Notes under the pieces: model-generated | Databases searched by the model: none | Told to the model about the DNA's origin: nothing | Seen by the model: only the letters and a program-made list of their open reading frames with translations | Made by a program: the position numbers and the translations under genes | Part shown: piece after piece, positions 2,349 through 56,006 of the stretch | Numbering within the stretch: the stretch's first letter is position 1 | Layout of the letters: every line of letters starts with the position of its first letter | Assembly: GCF_013122565.1 (NCBI RefSeq) | Contig: NZ_CP053258.1 | Source of the DNA: Escherichia coli | GTDB taxonomy: Bacteria; Pseudomonadota; Gammaproteobacteria; Enterobacterales; Enterobacteriaceae | Reading direction: 5' to 3' (one strand) | Length of the DNA: 64,000 nt

Positions 2349-3525
2349 ATTGCAGACCGCGCTCTTTCAGGCGTTCGATACCCTGAATCTGCAACGGGTA
2401 AAAACATTTAGCGTTCCACCGATGACGCTTTGCGGTCCGGGCGCGGTGAGCAGTTGTGGGCAGCAAGCGCAAACGCGTGGGCTGAAACATCTGTTCGTGA
2501 TGGCAGACAGCTTTTTGCATCAGGCGGGGATGACCGCCGGGCTGACGCGCAGCCTGGCCGTTAAAGGTATCGCCATGACGCTCTGGCCATGTCCGGTGGG
2601 CGAACCATGCATCACCGACGTATGTGCAGCCGTGGCGCAGCTGCGTGAATCAGGCTGTGACGGGGTGATCGCGTTTGGCGGCGGCTCGGTGCTGGATGCG
2701 GCGAAAGCCGTGGCGTTGCTGGTGACGAACCCCGATAGCACGCTGGCGGAAATGTCAGAAACCAGCGTTCTGCAACCGCGCCTGCCGTTGATTGCCATTC
2801 CAACGACCGCCGGAACCGGCTCTGAAACCACCAACGTAACGGTGATTATCGACGCGGTGAGCGAGCGCAAGCAGGTGTTAGCCCATGCCTCGCTGATGCC
2901 GGATGTGGCGATCCTCGACGCCGCATTGACCGAAGGTGTGCCGTCGCATGTCACGGCGATGACCGGTATCGACGCGTTAACTCATGCCATTGAAGCGTAC
3001 AGCGCGCTGAACGCCACACCGTTTACCGACAGTCTGGCGATTGGCGCTATTGCGATGATTGGCAAATCGCTGCCGAAAGCGGTGGGCTACGGTCACGACC
3101 TTGCCGCGCGCGAGAGCATGTTGCTGGCTTCATGTATGGCGGGAATGGCGTTTTCCAGTGCGGGGCTTGGGGTATGCCACGCGATGGCGCATCAGCCGGG
3201 GGCGGCGCTGCATATTCCGCACGGTCTGGCGAACGCCATGCTACTGCCAACGGTGATGGAGTTTAACCGGATGGTCTGTCGCGAACGCTTTAGTCAGATT
3301 GGTCGGGCACTGCGAACTAAAAAATCCGACGATCGTGACGCTATTAACGCGGTAAGTGAGTTGATTGCGGAGGTCGGGATCAACAAGCGGCTGGCAGACG
3401 TGGGCGCAACCACCGGACATTACGGCGCATGGGCGCAGGCCGCGCTGGAAGATATTTGTCTGCGCAGCAACCCGCGTACCGCCAGCCTGGAACAGATTGT
3501 CGGCCTGTACGCAGCGGCGCAATAA
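2338..3525 (+). CDS. eutG: Iron-containing alcohol dehydrogenase EutG
   Basis: Track ORF 2311-3525 trimmed to ATG at 2338 (MQNELQTALF...), giving 395 aa as recalled for EutG; overlaps eutJ 3' end by 11 nt. Confidence 0.9.
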   Translation: MQNELQTALFQAFDTLNLQRVKTFSVPPMTLCGPGAVSSCGQQAQTRGLKHLFVMADSFLHQAGMTAGLTRSLAVKGIAMTLWPCPVGEPCITDVCAAVAQLRESGCDGVIAFGGGSVLDAAKAVALLVTNPDSTLAEMSETSVLQPRLPLIAIPTTAGTGSETTNVTVIIDAVSERKQVLAHASLMPDVAILDAALTEGVPSHVTAMTGIDALTHAIEAYSALNATPFTDSLAIGAIAMIGKSLPKAVGYGHDLAARESMLLASCMAGMAFSSAGLGVCHAMAHQPGAALHIPHGLANAMLLPTVMEFNRMVCRERFSQIGRALRTKKSDDRDAINAVSELIAEVGINKRLADVGATTGHYGAWAQAALEDICLRSNPRTASLEQIVGLYAAAQ

Positions 3526-3527
3526 AT

Positions 3528-3611
<84 letters not shown>

Positions 3612-3641
3612 ATAAATAACAACTAACAGGGAGTAAAGGCG

Positions 3642-4868
3642 ATGGGAATTAACGAAATCATCATGTACATCATGATGTTCTTTATGCTGATAGCTGCCGT
3701 AGACAGGATCCTGTCGCAGTTCGGCGGTTCTGCTCGTTTCCTCGGTAAGTTCGGTAAAAGTATCGAAGGATCAGGCGGTCAGTTCGAAGAAGGCTTTATG
3801 GCAATGGGCGCTCTGGGTCTGGCGATGGTCGGTATGACCGCGCTGGCACCGGTACTGGCTCACGTACTCGGGCCGGTAATTATCCCGGTTTACGAAATGC
3901 TCGGCGCAAACCCGTCAATGTTCGCCGGAACGCTGCTGGCGTGCGATATGGGCGGCTTCTTCCTCGCCAAAGAGCTGGCGGGCGGCGACGTAGCAGCGTG
4001 GCTATACTCTGGGTTAATTCTCGGGTCGATGATGGGGCCAACGATTGTGTTTTCCATTCCGGTGGCGCTCGGCATTATCGAACCTTCTGACCGTCGTTAT
4101 CTGGCGCTCGGCGTGCTGGCGGGCATTGTGACCATTCCGATTGGTTGTATCGCTGGTGGTCTGGTAGCTATGTACTCCGGTGTTCAGATCAACGGCCAGC
4201 CGGTGGAATTCACTTTCGCCCTGATCCTGATGAACATGATCCCGGTGATCATTGTTGCGATTCTGGTGGCGCTGGGGCTGAAATTCATCCCGGAAAAAAT
4301 GATCAACGGCTTCCAGATCTTCGCCAAATTCCTCGTTGCATTGATCACCCTCGGTCTTGCCGCTGCGGTAGTGAAATTCCTGCTTGGCTGGGAACTGATC
4401 CCCGGTCTGGATCCTATCTTTATGGCCCCTGGCGATAAACCCGGTGAGGTGATGCGCGCCATTGAAGTTATCGGTTCTATCTCCTGCGTGCTGTTAGGGG
4501 CGTATCCGATGGTGCTGCTGCTGACCCGTTGGTTTGAAAAACCGCTGATGAGCGTCGGTAAAGTGCTGAATATGAACAACATCGCGGCAGCCGGCATGGT
4601 GGCAACGCTTGCCAACAACATCCCGATGTTCGGCATGATGAAGCAGATGGATACCCGCGGCAAAGTCATCAACTGCGCCTTCGCCGTTTCCGCTGCTTTC
4701 GCCCTGGGCGACCACTTAGGCTTCGCCGCTGCCAACATGAACGCCATGATTTTCCCGATGATTGTCGGCAAGTTGATCGGCGGCGTAACGGCGATTGGCG
4801 TGGCGATGATGCTGGTGCCAAAAGAAGACGCGACCGCGGCTAAAACCGAAGCGGAGGCACAATCGTGA
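3642..4868 (+). CDS. eutH: Ethanolamine permease EutH
   Basis: 408-aa highly hydrophobic polytopic membrane ORF; eut synteny. Confidence 0.93.
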   Translation: MGINEIIMYIMMFFMLIAAVDRILSQFGGSARFLGKFGKSIEGSGGQFEEGFMAMGALGLAMVGMTALAPVLAHVLGPVIIPVYEMLGANPSMFAGTLLACDMGGFFLAKELAGGDVAAWLYSGLILGSMMGPTIVFSIPVALGIIEPSDRRYLALGVLAGIVTIPIGCIAGGLVAMYSGVQINGQPVEFTFALILMNMIPVIIVAILVALGLKFIPEKMINGFQIFAKFLVALITLGLAAAVVKFLLGWELIPGLDPIFMAPGDKPGEVMRAIEVIGSISCVLLGAYPMVLLLTRWFEKPLMSVGKVLNMNNIAAAGMVATLANNIPMFGMMKQMDTRGKVINCAFAVSAAFALGDHLGFAAANMNAMIFPMIVGKLIGGVTAIGVAMMLVPKEDATAAKTEAEAQS

Positions 4869-52895: not shown

Positions 52896-52917
52896 AAACA
52901 TAGCAAAGGCTATGTTT
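52896..52917. promoter_or_regulatory. MntR operator palindrome in mntH promoter
   Basis: Perfect inverted repeat AAACATAGC-aaag-GCTATGTTT immediately upstream of the mntH RBS. Confidence 0.7.
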
Positions 52918-52920
52918 TAG

Positions 52921-54168
<1,248 letters not shown>

Positions 54169-54195
54169 TTGAATGAGCGTCGCATCTGGCACTAT

Positions 54196-54286
<91 letters not shown>

Positions 54287-54308
54287 TGTGCTCCATTGGC
54301 AAATGTGT

Positions 54309-54635
54309 TTAATGGCGGTGCCCATGTCCGCGGCCTTTTCCGCGATGATCGTCACGATCGCGCCAGCCTTCACGATAGCCACGCTCATACGCTTTACGCT
54401 TATCCCAGCCACGGTGGTAGCCATTATCATGACGCCACCAGCGGTTTTTACGCCATTCATAATTGCGATGCCAGTAGTCACGGTCGCGCCAGTGACCACC
54501 GTCCCAGTAATTACCGTAATGATCGCGATCGCCAATTTGTAATTTGATTGATGGCAGTAGGGTGATTTCACCTGCGTTTGCCGCAAGCGGGGTAAATGCC
54601 ATCAGGGCGGCCGCCAGAAACAGTGACCTGAACAT
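54309..54635 (-). CDS. ypeC: Secreted DUF2502 protein YpeC (His/Arg/Trp/Asp-rich)
   Basis: 108-aa ORF with signal peptide ([21 protein letters not shown]) and repeats such as [19 protein letters not shown]...GRGHGHRH. Confidence 0.85.
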
Positions 54636-54749
54636 TGTTATTCTCCTTCACGATCGAAGCCGTCAGCGGCCTGTTAACGCAATATTACGGGGAGGTAAAG
54701 CCCCGTATCATCGCCATAACTCTTAAATCATAAAGGAGAGCATTTTTTG

Positions 54750-56006
54750 CTAAACGTTATCGTGGGGTGGCTGTTGCTTCGGACGATTGACCATCATCAT
54801 CGGCTTACCTGCTAATAACAGCCATGCCGGAAGCATGACGATACAGAGCAGCGGTAGCAAGGTGGTATTGGGTACAACGACTGCCGCCATAAAAAGACTT
54901 AACCAGCCATCACGTGTTACCACCAGCACGATGCCGAGAATAGCGCAGGAAACGGTTATTGCCGCTGGAACGGCGGGTACGTGCTCATGCAGCATCAACC
55001 CTAATGCCACGCCGACAAACACTGCCGGGAAGATTCGTCCACCGCGAAAGCCACTGGCGGCAGCAACGACCAGGGCGGTAAGTTTAATTACCGCCAGCAA
55101 AAAGTAATCGCTGGTGCTGAAAGCCTGATTTGCCACCATCTGCTGCATCTCATCCAGTCCTTTAAACAGCGAAACCGGCCCACCAATAACCCCCAGAATA
55201 CCGAGAATAAATCCGCCAATACCCAGCACGAGCACCGGATTTTTCATTTGATGCATCATCGCGTGCAATCGTGGTAAGCACCATACGGCGACCATCCCTG
55301 CTGCGATGGCAATCGCCGCGACAATTGCACCGCTGAGAATATCGGTCATTTCCATCTGTCCGTAATGCGCAATGGGCAGTGAAAAATGAGGATGGAAAAA
55401 TAATCCGGTAGTAAGTGCACCAGCTGCTGCCGCCATTAACGGCGCAAAGAGACGATCCCATAGCGGAACTTCACTACTGCCATTTAAGGTTTGCGAAAAT
55501 ATCAACGCCGCCGCAACAGGTGTGCCAAACAGTGCGCCAATGGTTCCGGCAGAGGCTAAAATAGTCCACTCCATTCGGTTGACGCGCGGTAACAGACGAG
55601 CGCCAATGGCGACGGCAAGGGCGATATTGACGGTCATGATCGGATGTTCCGGCCCCAGGCTGACGCCGCCAGCAAGACCGAGAATTAATGCTACGATAAG
55701 TCCAGGTAGCGCAGAGGGCGGAACCGGTGCGCCGATCAGCGGTTCACAGGCGGGGTCTGGTCCGGCATGACCCTGGCTGAAACGGATAACCAACCCCACC
55801 GCAATACCCGTTAGCGTTAATACACCGATGATCCAGAGGGGTGAATCCTGGGCTATCCCCAGAGTTCCCGGCAGTCGTTGCCAGAGCAAATTCTGTAATA
55901 CCGAGGCGATTTTCATCACCACAATCAGAATAAGACTGGACGCAATCCCAATTGCCACGGCGGGGAGCGATAATAACAACATGGTTCTGGCTCGCGGATG
56001 GAGCAT
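54750..56006 (-). CDS. yfeO: ClC-family ion channel-like membrane protein YfeO
   Basis: 418-aa polytopic ORF; synteny glk-yfeO-ypeC-mntH. Confidence 0.9.

Follow-up and report, generated by a model that had tools for sequence, protein, structure and literature searches.

YpeC of Escherichia coli, a DUF2502 Protein of the Rcs and MarA/SoxS Stress Responses and a Possible Binder of Envelope Components

Introduction

Ivy, MliC, OsmB, and Spy protect the cell envelope as small, exported proteins without enzymatic activity, and YpeC, the product of an Escherichia coli gene that is induced together with them, could have a comparable role. However, YpeC has zero sequence or fold similarity to any of these proteins, and neither a lysozyme-inhibitor nor a chaperone motif has been identified in it. 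ZraP and RcnB are examples of another type of small exported protein, the His-rich proteins that handle metals in the periplasm. YpeC shares with them its small size, its predicted export, and a His-rich tail, but this likeness is one of composition only: no homology to this type appears in Pfam at E ≤ 10, the His residues of the YpeC core are not conserved, and the gene is regulated by Rcs and by MarA/SoxS instead of by a metal sensor. Moreover, dense clusters of Trp, Arg, and Tyr are typical of interfacial or glycan-binding sequences. Such clusters, GxYWDGxxW among them, bring YpeC close in appearance to Trp/Arg-rich membrane-active peptides and to aromatic-rich cell-wall-binding repeats, a resemblance to be taken as a lead only. 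Unlike those peptides and repeats, to which it has no known homology, YpeC seems to combine a folded domain with a tail and to be destined for the cell's own periplasm.

Within E. coli, the DUF2502 paralogue YaaX (b0005) is 62% identical to YpeC over residues 2–66. Both proteins have the same type of signal peptide, the YWDGGHWRD and YEWRxNRW motifs, a shared strand, and a His-rich basic C-terminus, and both belong to the Rcs regulon, YaaX being a member of the RcsB regulon that is induced by colicin M (PMC2731931; PMC3599342). However, past residue 66 YaaX continues as a Pro/His-rich tail (PPPPPRHHKK...) and lacks the conserved tail segment of YpeC, and yaaX adjoins thrC, whereas ypeC adjoins mntH. 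YaaX is equally uncharacterized and, thus, supplies no function for YpeC. Among more distant relatives, SMDB11_2817 of Serratia marcescens and two-unit proteins of Brenneria, Rouxiella, and other genera have the Pfam family and a 21-aa unit in common with YpeC, but many relatives of this type carry two full units, 28–31 aa apart, or tails of up to 120 aa, and some end in CPPGQAKKGxC, whereas YpeC has a single full unit.

The function of YpeC is still called unknown by the papers that mention it (PMC5770404; PMC12389024), in agreement with an earlier note on this DNA, made from the sequence alone, that described a DUF2502 protein of no known function. In the searchable literature, no experiment on a binding partner, a phenotype, or the localization of YpeC was found, and the identifiers b2390, STM2407, and P64542 led to nothing functional on the protein. 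Databases and papers already cover the gene, its family, and its regulation. The present analysis adds the definition of the 21-aa unit, which is present in a single copy in YpeC, a view of DUF2502 as a small family nearly limited to Enterobacterales, the lack of any relative of solved structure by sequence or by fold, a footprint of the promoter in four genera, and sequence-level grounds on which ypeC may be parted from mntH.

The ypeC Locus and Its Neighborhood

The window, that is, the whole stretch of 64,000 nucleotides of E. coli DNA that was analyzed (assembly GCF_013122565.1, contig NZ_CP053258.1), contains the region nupC-mntH-ypeC-yfeO-glk of this species. The ypeC coding sequence occupies 54309..54635 on the minus strand and encodes a protein of 108 aa (108 codons plus the stop), identical to the peptide quoted in the earlier note. 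The assignment comes from the list of open reading frames, from Pfam, and from the RefSeq annotation of E. coli genomes, in which the gene lies between mntH and yfeO under the name "DUF2502 domain-containing protein YpeC". The flanking genes encode an Nramp transporter (mntH, Pfam Nramp) and an ion channel (yfeO, Pfam Voltage_CLC). The match to DUF2502 (PF10697) is strong, at E = 3e-24 and 85.4 bits against a cut-off of 27, as had been proposed, and spans residues 23–106 and profile positions 1–90 of 90, while the mature protein alone scores 86.6 bits; an NCBIfam scan of YpeC matched zero family models. A 701-nt query around ypeC found matches in 5425 of 5426 complete E. coli genomes, and in 5286 of the 5426, 80% or more of the query was covered.

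The mntH gene (52930..54168, plus strand) is convergent with ypeC, with a stop-to-stop spacer of 140 nt. This spacer holds a BIME (54177..54285, no strand assigned) composed of two inverted REP palindromes (54196-54230 and 54249-54285) and a half REP (54177-54191), so that the coordinates and the palindromes bear out the arrangement that had been described from the sequence. The window contains 7 occurrences of the REP motif, where 0.88 would be expected, the RNA fold of the spacer reaches z = -4.2 relative to shuffles, and an Rfam scan of the region gave only sub-threshold matches to the REP-derived naRNA4, in the BIME. In Klebsiella, Shimwellia, Cronobacter, and Chimaeribacter, a bidirectional intrinsic terminator (A-run, GC-hairpin, and T-run) takes the place of the BIME. 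Since the two genes are convergent and a BIME or a bidirectional terminator insulates one from the other, mntH and ypeC are not co-transcribed.

A DUF2502 gene is convergent with an Nramp gene in E. coli, Klebsiella, Shimwellia, Cronobacter, Chimaeribacter, and Rouxiella, and the two lie one gene apart in Pantoea. This convergence in six genera and the near-adjacency in a seventh, along with the many Asp and His residues of YpeC, could be read as a sign that YpeC works with MntH in the uptake of Mn (or Fe), for instance by delivering or sensing Mn2+ in the periplasm. Nevertheless, such a partnership is highly improbable. Separate transcription argues against it, as does the finding that the MntR-type palindrome AAACATAGCAAAGGCTATGTTT has a single occurrence, at 52896-52917 upstream of mntH. 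No MntR operator was found near ypeC, a search for the Fur consensus with up to 3 mismatches was negative, and the ypeC promoter has no conserved blocks beyond a marbox, a TNRGA half-site, and a -10 element; thus, ypeC does not appear to belong to the MntR or Fur regulons or to an mntH operon. In addition, His-rich tails favor Ni, Zn, or Cu over Mn, according to general coordination chemistry. The block, which is conserved across Enterobacterales, also holds nupC, an aldo-keto reductase gene, and an ipdC-like gene, and, therefore, the adjacency to mntH looks like inherited synteny, a point of block conservation that a published synteny analysis also makes (PMC5770404). Moreover, yaaX lies by thrC, and neither an Nramp neighbor nor a recurrent partner was found in the neighborhoods of the Brenneria and Jeongeupia members and of three further distant homologues. 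The functional tie to mntH and manganese hinted at in the earlier note is, in consequence, not upheld, since separate transcription, the location of the MntR palindrome, the gene contexts of distant homologues, and a folded core in which no His is conserved all speak against it.

Regulation of ypeC by the Rcs and MarA/SoxS Systems

On published data, ypeC belongs to the Rcs envelope stress response and to the MarA/SoxS regulon. Chemical inhibition of LolCDE increases ypeC 42-fold and 60-fold, the gene being among the most strongly induced under this block of lipoprotein trafficking, together with such typical Rcs outputs as osmB, ycfJ, bdm, wca/wza, ivy, and mliC (PMC5105897). In an rcsB-disrupted O157:H7 isolate, ypeC is 23.7-fold lower (PMC5343319), and in Serratia the promoter of a DUF2502 gene rises by several log10 units in an IgaA-type mutant, a response for which rcsB is needed (PMC8470065). 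Moreover, ypeC is one of 33 MarA targets detected by ChIP-seq in E. coli, with the site gcattttttgctaaa, to which binding occurs in vitro at 0.3 µM, and is also a SoxS target by ChIP-exo (PMC5684230); in Salmonella, SoxS targets this site as well, according to ChIP-seq (PMC10268841). The idea that YpeC resembles envelope-interacting proteins fits this regulation, namely, the 42- to 60-fold response to LolCDE inhibition, the nearly 24-fold decrease upon rcsB disruption, and the direct targeting by MarA and SoxS.

The upstream region of ypeC was aligned across four genera, in which the upstream gene is yfeO (E. coli), an aldo-keto reductase gene (Klebsiella and Cronobacter), or a gene for an ipdC-like TPP enzyme (Shimwellia). 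The marbox GCATTTTTTGCTAAA (54740..54754, plus strand), which is the exact published MarA/SoxS site, overlaps the yfeO stop codon and runs backward relative to ypeC. Despite the differing upstream gene, it is kept in all four genera and is invariant but for one A/G position. The presence of the site in the window places ypeC in the mar/sox/rob regulon on the strength of the binding reported elsewhere (PMC5684230; PMC10268841).

A second conserved block, TTTAAGAGT (54719..54727, minus strand), reads TTT(A/C)(A/G)GAGT in the four-genus alignment and contains a TN(G/A)GA motif at 54720-54725 that is a possible RcsB half-site. Its agreement with the structure-derived RcsB box, TN(G/A)GAN4TC(T/C)NA (PMC7913699), is confined to the left half, and a search of 54636-54850 that allowed up to 1 mismatch did not turn up a full box. 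Thus, Rcs control of ypeC may be indirect, may use a non-canonical site, or may involve a partner protein. By visual comparison, T-N-A-G-A-G is present in both the yaaX and the ypeC promoters at different spacings to the -10, a likeness too weak for use.

Downstream, the TTTAC...CGTAATAT block is also invariant in the four genera and includes a putative -10 hexamer, TAATAT (54682..54687, minus strand). If TAATAT is the -10, the center of the backward marbox would be near -72, an arrangement that, according to Martin and Rosner, is reportedly typical of class I marbox promoters. A sigma-70 consensus scan of this promoter did not find a canonical -35/-10 pair, as would fit an activator-dependent promoter. 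The leader is likewise conserved in the four genera, including the block GTGAAGGAGA with the Shine-Dalgarno sequence AAGGAG (54643..54648, minus strand), which was read from the sequence. The conservation of the marbox, half-site, -10, and leader blocks indicates that ypeC is a self-contained transcription unit. A structured 5' UTR was also considered for ypeC and was rejected (fold z = 0.13).

Predicted Export and Composition of YpeC

The N-terminus of YpeC has the n-region, the h-region, and the AxA cleavage features of a Sec signal peptide, which would comprise residues 1-21 (54573..54635, minus strand) and be cleaved after ANA (ANA/GE). The Ala at position -1 is nearly invariant in an alignment of 65 DUF2502 members. 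These features suggest that YpeC is exported by Sec and is periplasmic, as predicted by the earlier note, which had called it secreted, and this agrees with the database keyword "signal" (cited in PMC9501238).

The predicted mature protein of 87 aa is strongly biased, with R (18%), G (15%), D (11.5%), H (10%), W (9%), and Y (8%) adding up to 72% of its residues. Compared with the E. coli background, W is 6.0-fold (binomial P = 6e-5), H 4.6-fold (P = 2e-4), and R 3.3-fold (P = 2e-5) enriched, so that the richness in His, Trp, Arg, and Asp that had been noticed by inspection has a quantitative basis. Aromatic residues make up 17% of YpeC, its pI is ~10, and its net charge at pH 7 is ~+7.6. Aliphatic residues of the mature protein are confined to positions 24–34 plus A82, and Cys and Met are absent from it.

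Architecture of the Core and the Tail

Two AlphaFold2 runs, with 18 and 65 sequences, gave the same picture, a folded core followed by a disordered tail. The core comprises residues ~23-71 (54423..54569, minus strand) and is the only part common to YaaX and the distant relatives. It is predicted to run from a beta-hairpin through the GDRD...YWDGGHWRD motif and a short helix to a second hairpin (NYEW/NRWW), with short strands at YW and HW and the helix at DRDYWHR; pLDDT is 80–89 over residues ~31-71 and falls below 50 over 72–108. Between the signal peptide and the motif, the 65-member alignment contains an amphipathic strand.

The core is built around a unit of 21 aa that characterizes the family, G[DE]R[DN]xxGxYWDGxxWRDxxWW, which in YpeC takes the form GDRDxxGxYWDGxxWRDxxWW at residues 35-55 (54471..54533, minus strand; unit HMM E = 5e-11), within the ~45-aa confidently predicted mini-domain. 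G35, G41, and W44 are invariant in the 65 members, and conservation family-wide is 95% or higher at Y43, D45, W49, R50, and W55 and 94% at D38. The whole family-wide conserved set consists of W44, W49, W55, Y43, R50, D38, D45, G35, G41, and G46, with zero His, and the His residues of the core are conserved at only 12–20% (H39), 11–12% (H48), and 34–59% (H56).

It had been claimed that the mature region is dominated by short repeats. The compositional bias behind this impression is real, but the repetition was overstated: exact repetition is limited to the peptides WRDRD (two copies) and DRD (three copies), and the unit HMM finds one full copy, at residues 35–55, one weak partial match at 59–67 (i-E 0.004), and a non-significant one at 90–95. 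Thus, a true internal repeat was rejected for YpeC.

The EF-hand loop has its ligands at positions 1, 3, 5, and 12 and Gly at 6. An EF-hand-like DxDxDG loop was considered for the GDRDxxG segment in a comparison by eye and was discarded; D36 (position 1), D38 (position 3), and G41 (position 6) fit the pattern, but position 5 is Y/R and position 12 is G.

No relative of known structure emerged for the core. A 65-member profile search of PDB sequences gave zero matches even at E ≤ 10, and fold searches did not find a solved analogue. Pfam at E ≤ 10, searched with YpeC and nine distant relatives, returned DUF2502 only, with no other repeat or metal families, and no enzyme-like match to YpeC was found in Pfam or the PDB. 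For a domain of 45 residues modeled at moderate confidence, these results are weak evidence for a new fold.

The C-terminal region, residues 72-108 (54312..54422, minus strand), is rich in Arg, Gly, Asp, Tyr, and His, ends in GRGHGHRH, and is predicted to be disordered (pLDDT < 50). Residues 72–95 are 80% conserved in YpeC orthologues and are not shared family-wide. The predicted disorder involves 37 of the 87 mature residues and, together with a GRAVY of -2.1, would suit a generic stress hydrophilin or holdase, that is, a largely disordered and highly charged periplasmic protein that would curb damage from aggregation or dehydration without recognizing any particular ligand. The induction of ypeC together with Spy, OsmY, OsmB, and trehalose genes (PMC5105897) and its inclusion in "multi-stress" gene sets (PMC9501238; PMC12389024) point in the same direction. 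However, the sharply conserved 21-aa motif, with its invariant Gly and Trp residues, and the confident predicted fold argue for a structure-dependent function, and a role as a hydrophilin is quite unlikely.

The DUF2502 Family and the Metal-Binding Question

A word-indexed search retrieved 278 relatives of YpeC, all of them with PF10697 and all the named ones from Enterobacteriaceae, and an exhaustive profile search of 1.84 billion representatives gave only 121 clusters at E ≤ 1e-3, for which reason DUF2502 can be regarded as a small family. Its named members come from Enterobacteriaceae, Yersiniaceae (Chimaeribacter, Nissabacter, and Rouxiella), Brenneria (Pectobacteriaceae), and Pantoea (Erwiniaceae), and Jeongeupia is the one betaproteobacterium with a member. 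Two 21-aa units, separated by 28–31 aa, are present in 24 of 147 retrieved relatives.

The C-terminal tails of the family are rich in H, G, R, D, and P, His accounting for 15.9% of the tails overall and for 24% of the last 15 residues, where 44 of 63 DUF2502 members have at least 3 His. The length of this His-rich end is variable among relatives while its composition is kept, as in low-specificity metal-binding tails. In addition, a bufferin (BufA1/MbnB) gene cluster, of a type linked to copper, is found in the vicinity of one distant member, and a Pantoea entry bears the automatic UniRef name "zinc ABC transporter substrate-binding protein". These observations could suggest that YpeC is a periplasmic buffer or chaperone of transition metals (Zn, Ni, Cu, or Co) whose His-rich tail captures ions during envelope stress, the folded domain merely anchoring or solubilizing the tail.

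Nevertheless, the Pantoea name is without any domain support, the gene contexts of distant homologues are heterogeneous, and the searchable papers that mention ypeC report no metal-dependent expression. Moreover, the folded core has zero conserved His, YpeC lacks Cys and Met, and no homology to metal-binding families was found in Pfam or the PDB, even at E ≤ 10. A dedicated role in metal buffering is, therefore, unlikely. The GRGHGHRH end is by composition capable of low-specificity binding, and it is plausible, if somewhat doubtful, that the tail binds Ni, Zn, or Cu in this manner. Thus, of the resemblance to metal-binding or envelope-interacting periplasmic proteins put forward in the earlier note, the envelope side fits the regulation and the metal side could rest on the His-rich tail, but neither conserved core His residues nor homology to metal families accompanies the latter.

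A Proposed Role for YpeC in the Envelope

We tentatively propose that YpeC is a non-enzymatic, stress-induced periplasmic protein that binds or stabilizes anionic components of the envelope, a role that its composition and co-regulation make a real possibility. When Rcs or MarA/SoxS reports envelope or antibiotic stress, ypeC would be expressed as an independent, activator-dependent unit, and Sec export would deliver the mature 87-aa protein to the periplasm. There, the conserved Trp/Tyr/Arg/Asp face of the mini-domain could bind an abundant anionic envelope component by means of aromatic stacking together with cation-pi or charge interactions; phospholipid or LPS head-groups, peptidoglycan, periplasmic glucans, and colanic acid are candidate ligands. 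The disordered cationic His/Arg tail may add charge or avidity in a pH- or metal-dependent manner. As an outcome, YpeC would act as a non-enzymatic stabilizer or shield of the envelope and not as a dedicated partner of MntH.

This proposal is favored because ypeC is co-induced with non-enzymatic envelope protectors, because a catalytic signature is absent from the protein, and because the tandem units of the two-unit relatives suit repetitive ligands. On the other hand, the class of ligand is suggested only by composition and co-regulation, the fold searches gave no analogue that backs any binding mode, and the canonical RcsB box is absent from the promoter, so that Rcs control could be indirect. 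Furthermore, the adjacency to mntH in Enterobacteriaceae and Yersiniaceae, and nearly so in Erwiniaceae, is explained only as inherited block synteny.

A number of envelope stress systems switch on periplasmic modulators of their own, as illustrated by CpxP for Cpx and MzrA for EnvZ. By analogy, YpeC, along with YaaX, might be a periplasmic modulator of signaling that provides feedback to Rcs (IgaA/RcsF) or a link to another envelope sensor. The very strong Rcs dependence of ypeC, its paralogue, and the Serratia homologue would agree with this, and a small protein of predicted periplasmic location with a conserved W/Y/R/D surface suits protein–protein contacts. However, there is no experimental hint of an effect on signaling, and DUF2502 is also present in the betaproteobacterium Jeongeupia, whereas, to our knowledge, the Rcs system is confined to Enterobacterales. 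In addition, the two-unit and long-tail variants look more like binders of repetitive ligands, and a modulatory function seems improbable in comparison with the binding of an envelope component proposed above.

Conclusions

Few genes of the Rcs envelope stress response are induced as strongly as ypeC, which is also a high-affinity target of MarA/SoxS but still lacks an assigned function. This gene is unlikely to alter the view of manganese homeostasis. It is conceivable, although rather unlikely as a whole, that the DUF2502 core is an undescribed Trp/Arg mini-domain for an anionic envelope polymer or lipid, and that YpeC and YaaX form an effector arm of Rcs or a feedback ligand, contributing to intrinsic tolerance of antibiotics and antimicrobial peptides downstream of Rcs and MarA/SoxS. 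Knowledge of what YpeC and YaaX do would close a gap in the understanding of enterobacterial envelope defense against antibiotics, lysozyme, and cationic peptides.

Elements flanking ypeC and mntH

The inverted repeat in TACGGGGCTTTACCTCCCCGTA (window 54688-54709, given as the sequence of the - strand) has 7-bp arms, TACGGGG and CCCCGTA, lies shortly 3' of the yfeO stop codon and abuts the putative -10 hexamer of ypeC on its upstream side. In the promoter alignment of E. coli, Klebsiella, Shimwellia, and Cronobacter, the TTTAC centre and the CG preceding the -10 hexamer are invariant, but only part of the stem is kept; the repeat could act either as a weak terminator of yfeO or as a protein site. 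Moreover, the upstream regions of ypeC and its paralogue yaaX have the pattern T-N-A-G-A-G-N-T-N-N-G-G in common (TTAGAGATTAGG and TAAGAGTTATGG; L001:130-160 for yaaX and window 54712-54727 for ypeC). This pattern, which was spotted post hoc in the sequences, could represent a shared non-canonical Rcs-related element; however, its GG is not kept in other genera.

At the other end of ypeC, the spacer separating it from the convergent mntH consists of a short bidirectional intrinsic terminator in Klebsiella (L002:5361-5417), Shimwellia (L004:5328-5395), Cronobacter (L006:5358-5421), and Chimaeribacter (L010:4361-4446), with the form AAAAAAGGCAGGC...GCCTGCCTTTTTT, and in E. coli a 140-nt BIME occupies this position in place of the terminator. 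Immediately 5' of the mntH start codon, a perfect palindrome, AAACATAGCAAAGGCTATGTTT (window 52896-52917), which we take to be the MntR operator of mntH, occurs as a single copy in the window, versus 0.06 expected by chance.

Overlapping frames and database entries

Three long alternative-frame ORFs overlap ypeC, one of 119 aa on the - strand (window 54227-54586) and two on the + strand, of 84 aa (54288-54542) and 83 aa (54296-54547), because the Arg/Asp/His/Trp/Gly codon usage of ypeC keeps other frames free of stops. Many of the database "proteins" among the retrieved homologues, e.g., P0122, P0132, P0144, and P0218, are frameshift chimeras, in which the reading switches to a T/I/A/V-rich frame. 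In addition, one 116-aa DUF2502 protein from Pantoea stewartii (P0245, in the cluster of P0166) bears the UniRef name "Zinc ABC transporter substrate-binding protein", which is backed by no domain and thus looks like an annotation artefact.

Distant DUF2502 proteins

A C-terminal two-Cys motif, CPPGQAKKG(N/R)C, is conserved in eight of the 65 aligned DUF2502 proteins, all of them distant (P0162, P0179, P0183, P0187, P0201, P0209, P0213, and P0214), and is absent from YpeC and YaaX. CPPGxAKK-like motifs are present in other small periplasmic proteins. At locus L014, one distant DUF2502 gene is the fourth and last in an array of co-directional small genes, three of which have no Pfam match. The array is divergent from an ECF sigma/anti-sigma pair and a BufA1/MbnB-family (bufferin-type RiPP) cluster (array and divergent neighbours, L014:834-2061 and 2537-4375), and the same four-gene array is found again at a second locus, L015.
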